Shown here: positions 1,523 to 7,557 of the stretch, one piece after another | Layout of the letters: the number at the start of each line of letters is the position of its first letter | Numbering within the stretch: the first letter of the stretch is position 1 | DNA from: Myxococcota bacterium | Lineage (GTDB): Bacteria > Myxococcota_C > UBA6777 | DNA length: 64,000 bases | Assembly: GCA_023150835.1 (NCBI GenBank) | Contig: JAKLKB010000022.1 | Coordinates: 1 to 64,000, forward strand | Reading direction: 5' to 3' | Made by a program: the position numbers and the translations under genes | The notes under the pieces: generated by a model | Database searches by the model: none | What the model was told of the DNA's origin: nothing | Seen by the model: the letters and a program-made list of their open reading frames with translations, nothing else

Positions 1523-1650
1523 TGCGATCCGCTGTAAACGCGCTGTGGGCGGGCAGCCACAGGGGGCTGCCCCTACATATTGCGCTCGCGCTGTGGGCGG
1601 GCAGCCACAGGGGGCTGCCCCTACATATTACGCTCGCGCTGTGGGCGAGT
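1523..1650. repeat. GTAG-type REP hairpins, 2 full copies and 1 partial
   Basis: GGGCAGCCACAGGGGGCTGCCCCTACA twice (reverse strand reads GTAG+palindrome); same unit near 7605-7658, 26590-26644, 48176-48217 (inverted) and 61607-61651; related hairpin at 12510-12543. Confidence 0.8.
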
Positions 1651-1690
1651 TTCGTGTGATGGGGCGCAGATATCCGCGCCGAGATGAATT

Positions 1691-1806
1691 GCACACTTTT
1701 TCCCAAAACGTTGCACTCTGCACACTTTTTCCCAAAACGTTGCACTCTGCGCACTTTTTCCCAAAACGTTGCACTCTGCGCACTTTTTCCCAAAACGTTG
1801 CACTCC
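1691..1806. repeat. 29-bp tandem repeat, 4 copies, no spacers
   Basis: Unit GC(A/G)CACTTTTTCCCAAAACGTTGCACTCT starts at 1691, 1720, 1749 and 1778. Confidence 0.95.
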
Positions 1807-1832
1807 GCACCAGCACGCTCCCAAACGCAACG

Positions 1833-2129
1833 AGAAGCGAACCTTGCATCATGACTCGGTGAGCTTGCGTGACGGCTTTGCAACCTTGGTTTTTGGGGAT
1901 GGAAACCAGACGGCTGTGGATGCGCTGTTCCCATAGCCAAAATCTCTTGCTATTTCAGCGAGATAAAAAACCACCTATTCAGCACACACAAGCCCCCCCA
2001 AACCAAGCGTCTCCTCCCTCTTTTGGCTCGAAAAGCGTCCGCTGCGGAAAATCGGGCTTCATGGGTCGAAAACCAAGGAGCAAAACCCAAAATCCAAGGG
2101 TGAAAATCCAAAAACCAAGATTTGCTTCT
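1833..2129. repeat. Long imperfect inverted repeat with 21-nt periodic arms
   Basis: (C/G)CTTG at 1842, 1863, 1884; CCAAG at 2073, 2094, 2115; 1833-1910 aligns without gaps to the reverse complement of 2052-2129; inner stem AGCCAAAA 1935-1942 with TTTTGGCT 2021-2028. Confidence 0.7.
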
Positions 2130-2192
2130 GGATGACGCGTTGCGCAAAGTCGGCACATTGCACAAAAACATCGCGAGACAAGAGAAGGGTGG

Positions 2193-3092
2193 TTAGTTGG
2201 GTTGTGGGATCGGTGAGTCGTTGTCGTCAGTGTCTTCGTCGGAATCTTGGTCTGTGGGGGGAGTGGCCTTGTTGGAGCGGCGGGTTGCGAGACCGAGAGA
2301 GATCAGTTGGGTGCGACGGAGGTTGGCAGCGCGTGCGGTTTGGCTCCATTCGGCAAACCACTGTGCGATCTGGACGAGCCATTGGTCTTGTTTGGCTTGG
2401 AGGGTTTCGGCGTCGACAAGGTGGGCGGTTTGAGGGGAGCTTTTTGCGGTGTGGAGCCATGCGCGGAGTTGTTGAAGGATCTCGGGGGAGAGGATCTTGC
2501 GTTGGTAGAGGAGTTGAGCGGCTTCTTTGTCCTGTTTGGCGGAGGCTTTGCGTTCGGGGCGAGAAGCGTTTTCAAGGGCTTCGACGCGATCCAAGAAGGT
2601 TTGTATGGAAAGGACGGCTCTTTCGCCTTGTTCGGCTTTGAGGTCGTGGAACAAAAAAGCGTGTTGTTCGGGATAACGATACTGAAGGGCAGCGCTTGCG
2701 CGTCGGAAGTTGGGTTCATCCCATCGATCAAGGGACGCGATCGCTTCTTTGTAAGAGGCCGTGTTGGGTGCGGCTTTGGGTTGATTGTACGCGGAAAGTT
2801 GGTGCAAAAGCTCCCAACCTTCTTGATGGTCTTTGGGGGAATAGCCGACATCTTCGAGATGCCGCATGATCACAGGGTAGCGACCAAGCGCCATCAAAAA
2901 TCGAAAGGCGCGTTCGGGGGCTTTTTCGAGCTGGTGGCGGGAAAACAACGTCGAAGAGAGCGCAGCCGAAGGGGCAGCAGCAGGAGGGACAGCAACAGCA
3001 GGGACAGACACAGAAGACGCAGCGTCCGAAGAAACATCGCCCGAAGGCACAGATACTGTGGATTGTGCAGACTTTTTGCGAGGCGCAGCCAT
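2193..3092 (-). CDS. Hypothetical alpha-helical protein (~299 aa)
   Basis: ATG at 3092 preceded by GGAG; low-complexity N-terminus, helical core (GYSPKDHQEGWELL, LDRWDEPNF, FLDRVEALE, WFAEWS...LISLGL), acidic tail; resembles uncharacterised Myxococcota proteins (from memory, not searched). Confidence 0.75.
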   Translation of the reverse strand: MAAPRKKSAQSTVSVPSGDVSSDAASSVSVPAVAVPPAAAPSAALSSTLFSRHQLEKAPERAFRFLMALGRYPVIMRHLEDVGYSPKDHQEGWELLHQLSAYNQPKAAPNTASYKEAIASLDRWDEPNFRRASAALQYRYPEQHAFLFHDLKAEQGERAVLSIQTFLDRVEALENASRPERKASAKQDKEAAQLLYQRKILSPEILQQLRAWLHTAKSSPQTAHLVDAETLQAKQDQWLVQIAQWFAEWSQTARAANLRRTQLISLGLATRRSNKATPPTDQDSDEDTDDNDSPIPQPN

Positions 3093-3428
3093 CAAGCAAC
3101 TCCTTATTCCATCACGAAACAGCGCCCTTCGTCCCATCACGAAGCAGCGCCCTTCGTTCCATCGCGAAGTAGTGGGGAAATCGACCCAAGATCGCGGACA
3201 CAAGCCCCTTGCAGAGAACCCGATGTGATGTGGGTCCTTGTTTCTCTGTGGGTGTTCTCTCAAAAGCAACGGCAAGCCTTCTTTTATTCTACATCTCTTA
3301 GACGATAAAAAGCAACCGAAGTCCTAGCCCACCCACAAACCAGAGCAAGCGCTGCACTCAACAGCCAACCCCCGAATTCGCGCCGACACGCCTCCCCTGC
3401 GCTTTGATGACGCGATCAGCACCCAAAC

Positions 3429-3569
3429 CCCCCGTGTTCGCGCCCGCCAAGCGACAACCACCAGACTTTTTAACGCCCATATCCGTGCGTAGCCAAAACC
3501 CCCGTGTTCGCGCCCGCCAAGCGACAGCGCTGTCTGTTTGAAAAACGATGTTGGTTTCGCCGATCCCAC
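3429..3569 (-). repeat. Partial copies of the ~120-bp dispersed element (its end duplicated, period 70)
   Basis: CCCCCGTGTTCGCGCCCGCCAAGCGACA at 3429 and 3499, continuing into TTTGAAAAACGATG...TTCGCCGA. Confidence 0.7.
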
Positions 3570-3712
3570 ACCAACAAAAAAACCCACACCAACAAAAAAA
3601 CCCACACCAACAAAAAAACCCACACCAACAAAAAAACCCACACCAACAAAAAACCCACACCAGCAAAAAAACCCACACCAGCAAAAAAACCCACACCAAC
3701 AAAAAAACCCAA
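3565..3712. repeat. 18-bp tandem repeat, ~8 copies
   Basis: Unit CCCACACCA(A/G)CAAAAAAA. Confidence 0.95.
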
Positions 3713-3723
3713 ACACAGGAGAG

Positions 3724-4590
3724 TCATTTAGCCCAAGAGGGACGTTGACAAGGGAGGGCTTTTCCGCTCCAGAGGGCGAGGAAGTCTTTGTGGGAGTAGC
3801 GGATTGCGCCGCGAGCGGGGTCCCAGACAAGGATGCGGTCGTGTTCTGTGCCAGCGAAGACAGCGGCGTGGTCTTCTTGTGGGCTGCGGGGGGATAGGCG
3901 GATGAAGAGGATGAGGGGTGGTTTTTGCTGTTGGAGTTGAGAGAGCGTCCATGTAGCGCGTTGGCAGGAGATACCGAGGGTGGCGAGTCCATAAACGATT
4001 TGAGAGTCGGAAGTTCCCAGAACTCGGGAGGTACGAAGGAGTTGAACCATCTCGCGTTCGGAGGTTTCGCGGCCCCAAGCGCGGAGGACGGAAGCGGCGC
4101 TGGCAGCGGCACAAGAGACGGGGGAAGTTTGGATGACGACGGGGCCTTGGATGATTGGATCACGCAGATCGACGAGGGCGGTTTCGGTGCAGAGCCAATG
4201 GCCGGATTCGACGATCACAGCGAGCAAGACCCCAGCGATGGGGAGTTTCCAGCGTTCGGCGTGACCGCTATCAAAGGCGACTTGGACGGCAAGGGCGGAG
4301 AAGAAGACGTAGGCAAACAGGACGGCGCACCAGATCGAGGGTCCGAGAGAATGGCCGACCCACAAGGGCAAGGCCCACTCCATCTTGGGATACTTCGAGA
4401 GTCCGTAGCCGTAGAGCATCGGCAGGAACACCAAAGCAAGCATCACGTAAAGATAAGGCGCGTGATGCAACACCTCTTGCAAAGGCAAACTGCCACCGGC
4501 TTTTTTGCGCAAACGTCGGGCCTCACGGTATCCTGCCCAGATCGCAACAACGTACACAAGAAGATGTAGCCACAAAGGAATCGCGGTCAT
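3724..4590 (-). CDS. Membrane protein with C-terminal C39-like cysteine peptidase domain
   Basis: About 4 hydrophobic segments, then QTSPVSCAAAS (Gln/Cys), DHAAV (His), VWDPARG (Asp); ATG overlaps the upstream TGA (ATGA). Confidence 0.75.
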   Translation of the reverse strand: MTAIPLWLHLLVYVVAIWAGYREARRLRKKAGGSLPLQEVLHHAPYLYVMLALVFLPMLYGYGLSKYPKMEWALPLWVGHSLGPSIWCAVLFAYVFFSALAVQVAFDSGHAERWKLPIAGVLLAVIVESGHWLCTETALVDLRDPIIQGPVVIQTSPVSCAAASAASVLRAWGRETSEREMVQLLRTSRVLGTSDSQIVYGLATLGISCQRATWTLSQLQQQKPPLILFIRLSPRSPQEDHAAVFAGTEHDRILVWDPARGAIRYSHKDFLALWSGKALPCQRPSWAK

Positions 4591-5087
4591 GGCAGGGCCT
4601 CGTTGGGTTTGAAGTGAAAGAGGCGGGGATCTTGGGGGCCATCGACGGCCAAGATCCCGACGTGGTGTTGAGAAAGATACGCAAGTCCATTTTCGCCGAT
4701 GTATCCGCCGCCGACGATGATGACTTTTTTGATCCCAGCGTGATGGATAAGTTTGGCGCACATCAGGCAGGGTTCCCCTGTGACAAAGAGCCAAGCACCT
4801 TGGGTGGGGACGCCCGAAGCAGCGCAGTTACAGATGACGTTCATCTCGGCGTGATGGCAACCGATCTCCATGCGCATCCCAGAAGGGATCGCCATCGTGT
4901 CGCGCAAACATTCATCGCCGCCGCAGAGTTCACCCCCTCCACGCGGCCCGCCGTTGTAGCCGTCCATCAAGACGACGTTGCGTTCAGGGTCAAGCAACAA
5001 AGCCCCAAACTTGCGGCGCGGACAGTTCGAGGCTTTGGCAAGGGCGAGACATTGTTCGATGCGGATCTGTACATGCTTTTCTTTCAC
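4587..5087 (-). CDS. dCMP deaminase family (ComEB-like) protein
   Basis: GYNG, HAEMN and PCLMC zinc-deaminase motifs; GTG start with AAAGGA upstream. Confidence 0.9.
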   Translation of the reverse strand: MKEKHVQIRIEQCLALAKASNCPRRKFGALLLDPERNVVLMDGYNGGPRGGGELCGGDECLRDTMAIPSGMRMEIGCHHAEMNVICNCAASGVPTQGAWLFVTGEPCLMCAKLIHHAGIKKVIIVGGGYIGENGLAYLSQHHVGILAVDGPQDPRLFHFKPNEALP

Positions 5088-5304
5088 GCAGTTTCCTTTC
5101 CGAATGCTCGGCGGTTGGGGATACAAGAAAAACTCATTGCATCAGGCGCTAAGATCTCGTATGATTTGGCCCAATTCTATGCGCAAGGCATCTTTATACA
5201 ACACTTTGCGGGATCGCGCCAAGAAGTGTTTGAGGCCGAGGAAAGGGAGATCGGCGTCATGTTGCTTGCGCATCATCCATCCCCCAGATCGCAAAGGATC
5301 ACCC

Positions 5305-7557
5305 ATGTCCACCACAAATATCCGCTTCCGTGACCCCCAAACAGGCCAGATGCACACCGTTCAAGCCGAACTCGTCAAGAAAGTCAAACAAGACAACCCC
5401 CAAAGTACCGAAGCTCTCAAGCACAATCCCAAAGACGGCAAGATCGATCTGTTTGTCCAAGCCGACAAAAATTACAGCGATGGCTACGGCAAAACCAACC
5501 GCGAAAGCTACCACCTGCAAATCAACAGCACCGCCCTCAGCAACGAACAAGTCAAAGCCCTTGCAGAAGCCCTGCGGGGTGGCAGCGACAATGCGATCCA
5601 GATCGATGAAGGGCGGGGATTCACGGTCTTTTCGGCACAATCCGACATCTACTCCGAGCGTTCTCGGTTGTTTGGACAAGATCGCCACAACCCCAACGTC
5701 AGTTTGACTGGAAACGACGCTGACAAGGTGTTTTTGAGCCGCAACGGTGTGTTTTCGACAGCGGCAGGAACGGCCCCTGCGAACCTCAAAGAAAGCGCCA
5801 AAGCCCTGTACAACGCAGCCGAGACAGCGGACAAACTCGCAGAAGGTCAAAACCTGTTTTCGCTTGGCGAAGTCTCGCAGACCACCAAAAAGAACACGCT
5901 TTCGCAGATCCGCGAAACGCTCGAACAAGCCCGCACCAGCAGCGAACTTTCGCCCAACGAAGCGGCCCAAGTCCGAAGCAGCGCAGCCACCGTGTTGACG
6001 GAGATGCTCAGCAGCCTCGGCAACAAAGGCACCGATGCGAAACTCAAGCAGCAAGCCTTTGCACAACTCAACCAACTGATCCAAAACGAGACGATTGGTG
6101 GCCTCAAAGAATCGATGATCTTTAACGCAGTGCGTGTACAATCGGGCCTTGGCGACGTGGATCGCGCCACAGTCGACAAACTGCGCGCCGAGATCGCCCC
6201 CACCCATCCGCCCACCGACCAGTGGTTTGCCGATGGCAAGCGCGAGCTCAACATCAGTTTTGCAGCGGGTCATGGCGAAGGCTTCTACGAAGGCATCACC
6301 GACTACTTCAAGCAACAAGGATTTACGGTCAAAAGCGAAGGCAACCGCTCAAGCTGGAACGCCGAACCCCGCCAACTTCAACTGACCAAACGCATCAACG
6401 GCGAAGAATACAAAGTCAACGTCGATCTACGGGACTTCAAAGACGATTCGTTCAAAGATATCGCCAACGACAAATACGATGTCGTCGTGTACCAAGGACA
6501 CAGCAACCTCGGAAACAACACGCGCAACTCGCTCAAAAATGCTCCCGACGCCACAGGCAAAGACAAGCTGATCTTCCTCGGCCTGTGTTCGGGCAAAGAC
6601 AACATCGACGGCGTGCGCGAAGCGTTCCCCGAAGCCCAGATGGTGACCACCTTCAACTCTTCCTACTTCAACACCAAGCCGATCGCAGGCGGCGAGGTGC
6701 AATTCACCCAAGGCGAAGACGCCAAAGCCTTGATGCAGATCGTCAACGGCGCGCTCAATCGGGCATCATGGAACGATATCAACAAAGGTATCCGTGACAA
6801 CGCGGTGGGCTGGAGCCACAAAGACGGAACCATCGGAAACTACGTCACCCCGCTCGATCTGCAACTCAACGCCCGCTTTCGAGACACCGACAATGACGGC
6901 CAAGCCATGACGATGGATCGGCACTTTAACCTCGATGTGATGGAAGTGCGCCCCGGTGTCAGCTCGGGCCTAACCCCTCGCGACAACAACGCCGAGGGAC
7001 GCAAACTCAATGGCGAACTCCCCCATCTCGCGGCAGCCTTCGCCAACACGATGGATCTCTACAATCCGACCTATGACCAATTCAGCCACAAAGGCCGGAT
7101 CATGGCGGATGGCTATTACAAAGGCAACGACAACGATCCGATCGTGAAGTTTGAGACGCGCACCGAAAATGGCGAAAAAGCCTTCGTGATGAAAGTCAAC
7201 GAACGCTACGCCCACATCGGCGAAGAAGCCTTGCGCGCCATCACGATGGTGGAATACAACCGTCACCTCGCCAAGACCGAAACAGGCTACCCGATCAAAG
7301 ACAAGACCGAGCGCGAGTTGGTGGGCTTGTTGACGGCAGCAGCGAGCTTGACTTACGACGCAGGATACCGCGATGCAGCGGTGTTTGAAGCCCTCGTCAA
7401 GCACTACAACCTCCCCGCCGGTCTGCGTTGGAGCGATGCAGGAGGCCTGATCGATCAAGAACACCACGACTACACAGGATCTGCTCAAATGGCCAGAAAA
7501 TGGATGGAAAAACTCTCTCCCGAAACCCTCCAAGCCCTTCGTACCGCCCTCCAATAA
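5305..7557 (+). CDS. Hypothetical protein (~750 aa) with possible caspase/gingipain-like His-Cys domain
   Basis: Long ORF with consistent codon usage; AAAGGA RBS; YDVVVYQGHS and LIFLGLCSG strand-His / strand-Cys motifs. Confidence 0.7.
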   Translation: MSTTNIRFRDPQTGQMHTVQAELVKKVKQDNPQSTEALKHNPKDGKIDLFVQADKNYSDGYGKTNRESYHLQINSTALSNEQVKALAEALRGGSDNAIQIDEGRGFTVFSAQSDIYSERSRLFGQDRHNPNVSLTGNDADKVFLSRNGVFSTAAGTAPANLKESAKALYNAAETADKLAEGQNLFSLGEVSQTTKKNTLSQIRETLEQARTSSELSPNEAAQVRSSAATVLTEMLSSLGNKGTDAKLKQQAFAQLNQLIQNETIGGLKESMIFNAVRVQSGLGDVDRATVDKLRAEIAPTHPPTDQWFADGKRELNISFAAGHGEGFYEGITDYFKQQGFTVKSEGNRSSWNAEPRQLQLTKRINGEEYKVNVDLRDFKDDSFKDIANDKYDVVVYQGHSNLGNNTRNSLKNAPDATGKDKLIFLGLCSGKDNIDGVREAFPEAQMVTTFNSSYFNTKPIAGGEVQFTQGEDAKALMQIVNGALNRASWNDINKGIRDNAVGWSHKDGTIGNYVTPLDLQLNARFRDTDNDGQAMTMDRHFNLDVMEVRPGVSSGLTPRDNNAEGRKLNGELPHLAAAFANTMDLYNPTYDQFSHKGRIMADGYYKGNDNDPIVKFETRTENGEKAFVMKVNERYAHIGEEALRAITMVEYNRHLAKTETGYPIKDKTERELVGLLTAAASLTYDAGYRDAAVFEALVKHYNLPAGLRWSDAGGLIDQEHHDYTGSAQMARKWMEKLSPETLQALRTALQ

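Follow-up and report, generated by a model that had tools for sequence, protein, structure and literature searches.

In the iteron replicons (P1 RepA with incC and incA, F RepE and pSC101 RepA), direct repeats of ~19-22 bp, or about two helical turns, are located beside the gene for the protein that binds them. Additional repeat clusters elsewhere act in control, and the gene for the binding protein is autoregulated through the repeats. In the type II/Ib plasmid centromeres, exemplified by R1 ParR-parC, the par promoter is flanked by two sets of phased iterons, to which ParR, a small protein encoded next door, binds cooperatively, thereby repressing its own synthesis. The rtp gene of Bacillus subtilis, which encodes RTP, adjoins inverted Ter repeats, and the REP, BIME and ERIC sequences are dispersed, imperfect palindromes that occur in several copies per genome. 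Myxobacterial genomes are among the largest in bacteria and encode many lineage-specific protein families without a known role.

The locus described here is located in a 64,000-nt stretch of DNA from a Myxococcota bacterium, which we refer to as the window. A gene on the minus strand (2193..3092), delimited by its open reading frame and start codon and matched by an identical 299-aa database protein (P0001), encodes an all-helical protein, and its stop codon is followed by two inverted arrays of short repeats. With moderate confidence, we interpret the region 1690-2122 as a cis-acting DNA element with two inverted arrays of predicted protein-binding sites, most likely bound by the 299-aa protein. 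The family to which this protein belongs most likely represents a DNA-binding protein with its own cluster of putative binding sites, and we judge the arrangement to be a new form of the iteron, or operator-plus-binding-protein, theme.

As in the iteron replicons, direct repeats of the ~17-22 bp class with a spacing of about two turns are found next to the gene of the presumed binder, but here the arrays form an inverted pair around a conserved centre and the loci are chromosomal, with a similar relative position across most Sorangium genomes. A centre flanked by two arrays of short, phased repeats, with the putative binder encoded adjacently, is also reminiscent of R1 parC, although the period is 20-21 bp here as compared to 11 bp in R1, and, unlike in ParR-parC and ParB-parS, there is no gene for an NTPase of the ParA, ParM or TubZ type as a conserved neighbor in the loci scanned. 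The combination of a putative DNA-binder gene with an inverted, composite pair of sites, and with further sites elsewhere in the chromosome, resembles the RTP-Ter system, from which it differs in that each genome has 1-3 genes and at most 4 elements, placed at ~0.77-0.87 of the coordinates in most complete Sorangium chromosomes. Like REP, BIME and ERIC, the elements are intergenic, imperfect palindromes in several copies per genome, often located after stop codons between convergent genes. Unlike these, they have a very low copy number, an internal periodicity of 20-21 nt in the arms and a specific link to one protein family across genera, and their hairpin is not maintained between strains of the window lineage.

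The proximal arm, nearest the stop codon of the gene (2069..2122), consists of three units of ~21 nt with CAAG cores that start at 2074, 2095 and 2116 on the plus strand and read CTTGG in the direction of the gene. It adjoins a conserved box (2013..2068), which shows no differences in L069, a close strain, and is partly kept in the second copy of the element, on C217. The arms are separated by this box and a variable centre (1901..2012), which has 18/112 differences to L069 and is partly conserved in the C217 copy. The distal arm (1833..1900) also has three units, with CTTG cores that start at 1843, 1864 and 1885 on the plus strand, and is joined to a 29-nt tandem array (1690..1810; 4.2 copies) that is present in both copies of the A-type (C151 and C217). 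The unit sequences of the two arms differ, except for the inverted core. Because the distance from 1885 to 2074 is 189 nt, or nine times 21, all six cores share a single 21-nt register. The motifs listed in a preliminary description of this DNA, (C/G)CTTG at 1842/1863/1884 and CCAAG at 2073/2094/2115 with a spacing of 21 nt, agree with the sequence in both position and composition.

The phasing was scored as the chain of a tetramer repeated at exactly 21 nt plus the chain of its reverse complement. The window element scores 6, a value reached by 0/1000 dinucleotide shuffles of 1811-2192 (mean 0.04, maximum 4); an exact 6-mer chain test scores only 2, and the 4-nt core is thus needed for the signal. 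In a tandem-repeat scan, the proximal arm was recovered with a period of 22, 2.5 copies and a score of 56. The genome contains as many as 3091 tandem arrays, of which 248 have a period of 21, and it is therefore less remarkable than elsewhere to find a 21-nt array next to a gene. This abundance, along with a marginal alignment of the arms, is what could be expected of chance or functionless slippage debris. We nevertheless find such an origin scarcely credible, given the outcome of the shuffles, the recurrence of the pattern across genera and the second A-type copy on C217, which has kept the architecture at 71-74% identity. In that copy, the proximal-arm unit has expanded to ~5 copies (C217:426-523) and the homologous distal arm has CTTG at 196 and 217.

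As far as can be told, the region of the element is non-coding, as had been suggested for the ~500 bp on the 3' side of the gene. No open reading frame is conserved between the window and C217 copies, which are distinguished by 1-nt indels, and a search for tRNA and tmRNA genes gave no match to the window element. The Rfam covariance models produced two chance-level matches (E 1.9 and 2.6), far below the gathering scores and outside the element. No intrinsic terminator, in the form of a short G+C-rich hairpin with a T-run, was detected within 1650-2192, and no sigma-70-like promoter was recognized in the element by a consensus scan. A CRISPR array was considered and rejected, as the units are arranged head-to-tail without spacers and PADLOC gave no significant match. 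The 48-nt unit at 1539-1647 and the unit at 3423-3526, which flank the element, are dispersed REP-like repeats, and the true REP-like units of this genome are present in tens to hundreds of copies. The initial characterization of the element as neither a terminator, a CRISPR array nor a REP sequence, located between REP copies and repeat debris, is in keeping with these results. The idea that the 29-nt unit is an amplified outer arm fared less well. Located between the stop codon and the proximal arm, a 17-nt stretch (2146..2162) of uncertain membership in the element does agree with the 29-nt unit, read as its reverse complement, at 13/17 positions, but the match is weak, with 13/500 shuffles reaching the same value, and the case for amplification is marginal.

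The arms could alternatively pair to form a structured RNA or DNA hairpin, either as a bulged stem in the 3' UTR or as a cruciform, which would stabilize or terminate the transcript, or be bound or processed by the protein. The arms in Sorangium are almost perfectly complementary and form a stem of ~57 bp in strain So ce56 (fold z = -7.4; 0/200 shuffles fold as well), and complementarity of the spacers in the arms is retained between paralogues in Sorangium that differ in spacer sequence. The frequent location of elements just after stop codons in convergent intergenic regions is also consistent with a hairpin. In the window, however, the ungapped alignment of 1833-1910 with the reverse complement of 2052-2129 has 44/78 identities (50/78 pairs with G-T allowed), whereas the best 78-nt inverted alignments in 300 shuffles have a mean of 38.0 (sd 2.1, maximum 45) and reach 44 in 7/300 cases. 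The coordinates and the phased motifs of this alignment, as proposed earlier, hold, but the arm-wide complementarity is only marginal; the signal therefore sits in the phased cores and not in the arms as a whole. The best local inverted arms identified in a repeat search, 1874-1897 and 2086-2109, are 24 nt long and 83% complementary. Likewise, the inner stem that was thought to continue the fold (1935-1942/2021-2028) forms a perfect inverted repeat of 8 bp in the window, but it is broken in L069 and not kept in the C217 copy. The window element folds weakly as RNA (z-score -1.5 for the gene strand and -2.2 for the plus strand), many loci have their arrays upstream, over the promoter of the gene, and the consensus RNA structure of the Sorangium centre is weak, with a total energy of -12.5 kcal/mol and a covariation term of +0.17, and hence no net covariation. 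The Rfam and terminator searches also speak against a hairpin.

The comparison with L069, a near-identical strain with 99% protein identity, bears directly on this question. The distal arm has 10/68 differences, every one of which falls outside the three cores and none of which is compensated in the proximal arm, which itself has 1/54 differences. Across the box and the proximal arm (2013-2195) there are 1/183 differences, while the gene has 14/476 at the nucleotide level and just 1/158 at the amino acid level. The 29-nt array varies in copy number, with two units (58 nt) missing in L069. Uncompensated changes in the distal arm outside the CAAG cores favor phased protein-binding sites in DNA over an RNA hairpin, in line with the suggestion that a conserved core with variable flanks marks candidate phased binding sites. 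Selection is seen on the cores only, and their conservation alone between strains points to a sequence-specific reader. We consider a hairpin unlikely, and the long bulged hairpin RNA envisaged in the preliminary description is not upheld. A search of metatranscriptome runs with the So ce56 locus recovered small shares only, and the contigs, which are 90-99% alike and come from relatives other than So ce56, cover the gene, the gene next to it and the edge of the proximal arm, leave out the centre and are uninformative about RNA from the element.

Phased arrays are also present beside other genes of the family. The second family gene in this genome (C202:41349-42277) is directly preceded by a 21-nt repeat in eight units, with CCAAGG as the core, and farther upstream by two CCTTGG motifs. 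In the same taxonomic family, locus L007 has ~4 units followed by ~8 inverted units with a 21-nt spacing that extend up to the ATG (score 11), L004 has four copies of GCTTGTGC followed by four copies of GCACAAGC upstream of the gene, and L008 has 2.5 perfect 21-nt units upstream. Even a metagenome homologue with 33% identity has a 21-nt repeat upstream, with eight units and GAAGCTT as the core. The absence of a periodic palindrome beside homologous genes had been named beforehand as grounds for rejection, and this test came out in favor of the association. We surveyed 54 named Polyangia loci, which were searched for with a six-row family alignment, using a phased-chain score of at least 5 as the threshold and control windows located >800 nt away. 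Such scores were obtained for 25/97 flank windows, corresponding to 25/52 Polyangia loci, as compared to 8/176 control windows, and inverted array pairs were seen in 20/97 flank windows versus 4/176 controls; the shuffles had a mean of ~2 and a maximum of 3-5. The remaining 27/52 loci, including the three Polyangium loci and L009, have no strong array within 600 nt. The arrays beside family genes have a period of 20-21 nt, are mostly arranged as inverted pairs and share the core GAAGC/CAAG. In the usual layout, the stop codon is followed by a GCTTCCGAC-type arm, the centre and a GTCGGAAGC-type arm, and in some homologues copies of the motif are also found in promoter regions. Neighboring gene clusters are shared only within the synteny of 13 Sorangium loci, which leaves the element as the gene's sole constant partner.

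The elements also occur on their own. In this genome of 7.56 Mb, there are five elements (two A-type and three B-type) and only two family genes, and the Sorangium genomes have 1-4 full-length copies each (arms plus centre, about 300 nt, 74-79% identity). Three Sorangium elements have no family gene within 1.5 kb (L073, L089 and L092), and at L087 only a remnant of a family gene lies beside the copy. The gene that precedes the L073 element is presumably mltG-like, judging from its C-terminal translation. The two elements of So ce56 are located next to the gene, at 10.53 Mb, and away from it, at 6.14 Mb. The So ce56 copy that follows this mltG-like candidate is missing at that place in 5/5 other Sorangium genomes, so copies come and go. 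The dispersed copies in both this genome and Sorangium fit the idea of a self-contained cassette. Since elements without a gene exist, another factor could be the binder. At the DNA level, a search of 40 relatives with the window element gave matches in 0/40.

From these copy numbers, gene-less copies and absences, and from the abundance of other REP-like repeats in the genome, it could be argued that the element is a low-copy, dispersed palindromic repeat of the REP, BIME or MITE kind, or a regulatory element of some other factor, and that the family gene is merely a frequent neighbor, for example through co-duplication. We find this rather doubtful. The association with the gene spans genera in which the repeat units have diverged beyond recognition, which is not expected of a hitch-hiker, and the type of repeat unit tracks the protein clades in Sorangium. 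Furthermore, REP and MITE families have far higher copy numbers, and the restriction of conservation to the cores between strains again suggests a reader of the sequence. Two other functions were considered for the Sorangium elements and rejected: an invertible switch, as the centre has the same orientation in all 14 aligned loci, and a sigma-54 promoter in the invariant box (GAGCACGA..TTTCGCGTACTTAG), in which the -24 GG and -12 GC positions do not fit the sigma-54 consensus when compared by eye.

The protein itself was first described as an orphan, a label that no longer applies, as it belongs to a large Myxococcota family of 1928 clusters (E<=1e-3) for which there is no Pfam model. Residues 1-46 are disordered, residues ~47-275 form a helical core and the C-terminal tail is acidic; the AF2 model has a pLDDT of 84. 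The core has a pI of 9.55, and eight Arg/Lys positions are conserved in at least 88% of 124 family members, although the whole proteins in the family are not basic (median pI 6.4). The Pfam search of the window protein gave a sub-threshold match only and no recognized DNA-binding domain, PHROGs gave no match to the family proteins, and no fused domains were detected with Pfam in eight longer family members. With PADLOC, the window protein weakly matched a CARF/HEPN model (E = 0.011, 12.5 bits), and the three other proteins searched had no match. Profile searches of PDB sequences gave no match below E = 0.024, the value of the one match obtained, and Foldseek searches of the PDB with two models gave no match at E<=0.001. 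The best VIA Z-scores of these two models, 7.5 and 7.1, are in the range usual for unrelated helical bundles. No winged-helix fold, as in the Rep proteins and RTP, or other fold was recognized for the 299-aa protein with Foldseek or VIA, and for its helical domain of ~230 aa no ribbon-helix-helix match, as in ParR, or other match was recognized.

Matches in the ESM Atlas were to unnamed Myxococcota clusters only. The NCBIfam model NF052641 ("PQLLE family protein") has weak matches in 4/4 members tested (E 1.2e-7 to 0.034). The window protein scores 13.8 bits and three relatives score 15.8-31.6 bits, as compared to a cut-off of 80 bits, and a search of this genome with the model gave no match. 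On these scores, none of the four belongs to NF052641, to which the family is probably related at a distance. In the part of the literature accessible to us, nothing was found on the family, the matches to the word "PQLLE" being unrelated peptides, nor anything relevant on iterons or intergenic inverted tandem repeats in Sorangium or the Myxococcota, or on GGAAGCTTCC in Sorangium.

In formal terms, the closest match is a replicon: direct repeats of ~20-22 bp with a two-turn spacing are clustered on both sides of a spacer, beside a gene that presumably encodes the binder, and extra clusters are located elsewhere. Gene and element also behave as a duplicating cassette. The locus might accordingly be read as an iteron-type replication origin, a copy-control locus or the centromere of an integrated or former replicon, with the protein as initiator or centromere binder, but we regard this as very unlikely. 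Neither the protein nor the neighbors of the gene, which in the window are VanY-like, peptidase C39-like and a deaminase, match Rep, ParA or ParM families in Pfam or NCBIfam, and the So ce56 element has no DNA match among 72,556 plasmid records. No cluster of DnaA boxes was seen in the centre upon inspection by eye. In most complete genomes, the main Sorangium locus is located at ~0.77-0.87 of the coordinates of the chromosome (0.47 in So ce1000), and this position, along with some shared clusters of neighboring genes, is that of a resident chromosomal gene. A site at the replication terminus was rejected as well, as the loci in most of these genomes are not opposite the coordinate origin.

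We return to the interpretation of the element as a DNA site for the family protein. Each array would offer a short core, CAAG/CTTG in the window and GAAGC/GCTTC in most relatives, every 20-21 bp, and since this corresponds to two helical turns, the sites would face one side of the DNA. With the arrays flanking a centre of 100-190 bp, the helical 299-aa protein may load cooperatively on the phased sites of both arms, which could then be drawn into one nucleoprotein complex. Arrays that cover the gene's own promoter, as in the C202 paralogue, G004 and other relatives, could mediate autoregulation, while those located after the stop codon or standing alone may represent further sites, with a role in a regulon, in titration or in chromosome organization. 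More tentatively, we can imagine an unrecognized class of sequence-specific DNA binders, with an all-alpha fold unlike the solved ones, that polymerize on iterons with a 21-bp phase and bridge the two inverted arrays. The gene-plus-site cassettes and gene-less sites would then be myxobacterium-specific landmarks in the chromosome, for its organization, segregation or replication control, analogous but unrelated to ParB-parS and Rep-iteron systems.

A family of ~1900 clusters without a Pfam model thereby gains a concrete and testable hypothesis, in that the sites clustered next to its genes have a readable core, GAAGC/CAAG, and a two-turn spacing, and more copies of them are present elsewhere in the chromosome. 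If it is true that the protein binds, this would be a new DNA-binding fold that comes with a ready-made recognition code, and the sites would constitute a chromosomal system of a new kind, in a group for which chromosome organization is poorly understood. Should binding not occur, the element would still stand out as an unusual periodic palindrome of low copy number. Since Sorangium cellulosum So ce56 is in culture, has been sequenced completely and contains one family gene and two elements, the hypothesis is readily testable in this strain.

The gene for the 299-aa protein (an ORF at 2193-3092, minus strand) is convergent with that for a VanY-like peptidase (175-1512), their stop codons facing each other across a 680-bp intergenic stretch. 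From left to right on the plus strand, this stretch contains 2.3 copies of a REP-like 48-nt unit (1539-1647), 4.2 copies of a 29-nt tandem unit (1690-1810), a left, distal arm with CTTG cores at 1843, 1864 and 1885, a centre, and a right, proximal arm with CAAG cores at 2074, 2095 and 2116, which ends 70 bp from the stop codon of the 299-aa gene. The six cores share one 21-nt register, and the 3+3 arrangement was found in none of 1000 dinucleotide shuffles, which upholds the inverted motifs at 21-nt spacing in the preliminary description and makes chance an extremely improbable explanation. The longer similarities claimed there stand only in part: the arms do align with 44 identities in 78 nt, but this is marginal (shuffle mean 38.0, sd 2.1; 44 reached in 7 of 300), and the 13/17 match of the 29-nt unit to the outer right flank is present but weak, being equaled by 13 of 500 shuffles. 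Searches of the element in the window were negative for Rfam families, tRNAs, sigma-70-like promoters and terminator-like sites. We give about even odds to the hypothesis that it is a cis-acting DNA element, composed of phased inverted arrays of candidate binding sites, that belongs with the protein family and has the protein as its probable binder.

Upstream of the 299-aa gene are 2.5 copies of a 25-nt tandem unit, directly before the start codon (within 3107-3169), and 8.2 copies of an 18-nt unit (3565-3711), both unrelated to the 21-nt arrays. Between them, CCAAG at 3186 and CCTTG at 3207 are spaced by exactly 21 nt, and this pair (3186-3211) could be a single candidate operator of the same kind as the element. 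According to a Pfam scan, the neighboring genes encode a membrane protein with a peptidase C39 domain (3724-4794, minus), a dCMP/cytidine deaminase (4587-5126, minus) and an 859-aa protein without a Pfam match (4978-7557, plus).

The 299-aa protein had been described as an orphan. A word-index search returned only 8 proteins, and an exhaustive profile search yielded 1928 family clusters at E<=1e-3, while the nearest clusters in the Atlas belong to the Myxococcota; thus, it is not an orphan. Within the same taxonomic family, phased arrays were located upstream of the gene at three of four complete homologue loci: about four units followed by about eight inverted units reaching the ATG (L007), four units and then four inverted ones (L004) and 2.5 perfect units (L008). 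The fourth, L009, has no phased array, and a fifth match, L005, is not counted, being a fragment located at the end of a contig. A wider survey of one genome per species gave 54 loci, two of them duplicates of L004 and L009 and two others near-identical to each other, all in Polyangia-type myxobacteria as judged by record titles (Sorangium, Polyangium, Byssovorax, Labilithrix, Minicystis, Sandaracinus and many MAGs). Many of these, for example So ce56 and a Sandaracinus MAG, have two inverted arrays of period 20-21 just 3' of the stop codon, 100-150 nt apart, while others have arrays upstream of the family gene.

As an unbiased score, we summed the longest chain that an exact 6-mer forms at steps of 19-23 nt and the chain formed by the reverse complement of that 6-mer. 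Scores of at least 5 were obtained in 25 of the 97 flank windows, belonging to 25 of 52 loci, as compared to 8 of 176 control windows taken from the same loci at a distance of over 800 nt from the gene, and inverted pairs in 20/97 and 4/176 windows, respectively; shuffles had a mean of about 2 and maxima of 3-5. Among the eight control matches, three (L010, L012 and L017) resemble the same type of element, at a distance of 1.7-2.4 kb from the gene. Owing to the length of its core, 4-5 nt, the window itself reaches a score of only 2. Periodic inverted arrays thus recur next to many homologous genes, whereas their absence there would have spoken against the preliminary description. The core differs by lineage: most genera have GCTTCCGAC / GTCGGAAGC, some have GCTTG / CAAGC, and the lineage of the window has CTTGG / CCAAG. 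A metagenome homologue with 33% identity has eight upstream 21-nt units with a GAAGCTT core. No neighboring genes of the family loci are conserved beyond Sorangium synteny. By eye, sigma-70-like hexamers (TTGCAG ... TATCAT and similar) lie between the last unit and the start codon at L068/L006 (C202), L007, L009 and L070, with repeat units on either side of them at L007.

A second copy of the element, 71-74% identical to that in the window, opens the short contig C217 of the same genome, and keeps the same order of the 29-nt array, an arm whose CTTG motifs are spaced by 21 nt, the core and the right-arm unit; here, the right-arm unit is expanded to about five copies of 21-22 nt, and the adjacent gene encodes a TPR protein with no kinship to the 299-aa protein. 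A profile built from these two copies identified a third, more distant element on contig C133 (E = 1.3e-4), which together with copies on C202 and C12 represents a second subtype; this comprises between five and eight units of 21 nt that have a CCTTGG core, together with a centre and a pair of inverted cores spaced by 21 nt. The genome contains exactly two family genes, that in the window and a 50%-identical paralogue (C202:41349-42277) directly downstream of the C202 element, and hence two of the five elements adjoin the only two family genes. Since tandem arrays number 3091 in this genome, including 248 with period 21, this coincidence alone is not decisive.

So ce56 has one family gene and two full elements. 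Within 1.5 kb of the second element there is no family gene, and this element follows a gene that we take to be mltG-like, by eye from its C-terminal translation. A distance of 1.5 kb or more from any family gene favors a dispersed palindromic repeat recognized by another factor, an alternative that we consider unlikely. Five other Sorangium genomes have 1-4 full-length copies each, and in all five the copy after the mltG-like gene is absent at that position. Some Sorangium copies lack a nearby family gene, one is accompanied by no more than an N-terminal remnant (L087), and one family gene (L090, the L056 locus) is split over two reading frames by a frameshift or sequencing error. The pattern for gene and element is thus that of a duplicating and decaying cassette, of which the element can survive without the gene. 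In So ce56, a trypsin-like peptidase gene (L028:3554-5197; Trypsin_2, E = 1.9e-11) lies past the element, convergent to the family gene, and has relatives in five further Sorangium loci; at L004, the gene after the homologue resembles a serine protease by eye.

We also considered the possibility that the arms form an RNA or cruciform hairpin. A metagenome contig (L069), whose protein is 99% identical to the window protein, differs at 14/476 nt and 1/158 aa in the coding overlap, at 1/183 positions over the stretch that begins at the stop codon and takes in the proximal arm and adjacent box, at 18/112 in the centre and at 10/68 in the distal arm, every one of the latter outside the three CAAG cores. 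None of these ten changes is compensated in the other arm, which disfavors arm pairing. Furthermore, the 8-bp inner stem that was thought to continue the fold is broken in both L069 and C217, and the predicted folding of the window element does not surpass that of shuffles (z = -1.5 and -2.2), so the long bulged hairpin RNA originally proposed finds no support here. In Sorangium, however, the arms are almost perfectly complementary (z = -7.4) and remain so between paralogues with different spacers, which fits a hairpin but also iterons whose whole units are kept alike by conversion. In the Sorangium centre are a 24-nt box that is almost invariant and a palindrome of 18 bp; the centre shows no net covariation as RNA, and these two features may be further candidate protein-binding or promoter-like DNA sites. 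In metatranscriptome contigs of relatives, the gene is covered and the centre lies outside the coverage, a pattern compatible with either reading. Altogether, we regard a hairpin as improbable.

For the 299-aa protein, an AlphaFold2 model (124 sequences) predicts a confident all-helical core (pLDDT 84 overall, >90 for 195 residues), with a disordered N-terminus and an acidic C-terminal tail. The core has a pI of 9.55 and eight conserved basic positions. No clear match was found among solved structures and no fitting family in Pfam, PHROG or PADLOC, although the NCBIfam family PQLLE is probably a distant, sub-threshold relative, and the whole family proteins are not basic; the features of the protein itself therefore do not demonstrate DNA binding. 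The gene and element can be likened to known systems in which a binding protein is paired with a cluster of iterons or operators, and we think it very unlikely that they represent a former replicon's iteron origin or centromere. Searches of literature titles and abstracts turned up no account of either the family or the element.

The genome, in which the window is C151:1-64000, is extremely dense in tandem repeats (the 3091 TRF arrays have scores of at least 50, in 7.56 Mb), with periods dominated by multiples of three (18: 278 arrays; 21: 248; 24: 193) and many arrays at contig ends. Several dispersed REP-like families are also present (window 1539-1647 and 3423-3526; C217:515-645), including the 48-nt hairpin unit, a unit containing GTGTTCGCGCC (35 matches at <=4 mismatches, on 30 contigs) and a unit of about 125 nt with very many blastn matches over many contigs. 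Such units are frequent contig break points, and the sequence at the end of C133 is similar to that at the beginning of the window. A 17-copy 21-nt array inside an open reading frame (C115:37608-37967) is similar to the right-arm unit; it would encode a 7-aa repeat and is probably unrelated to the element.
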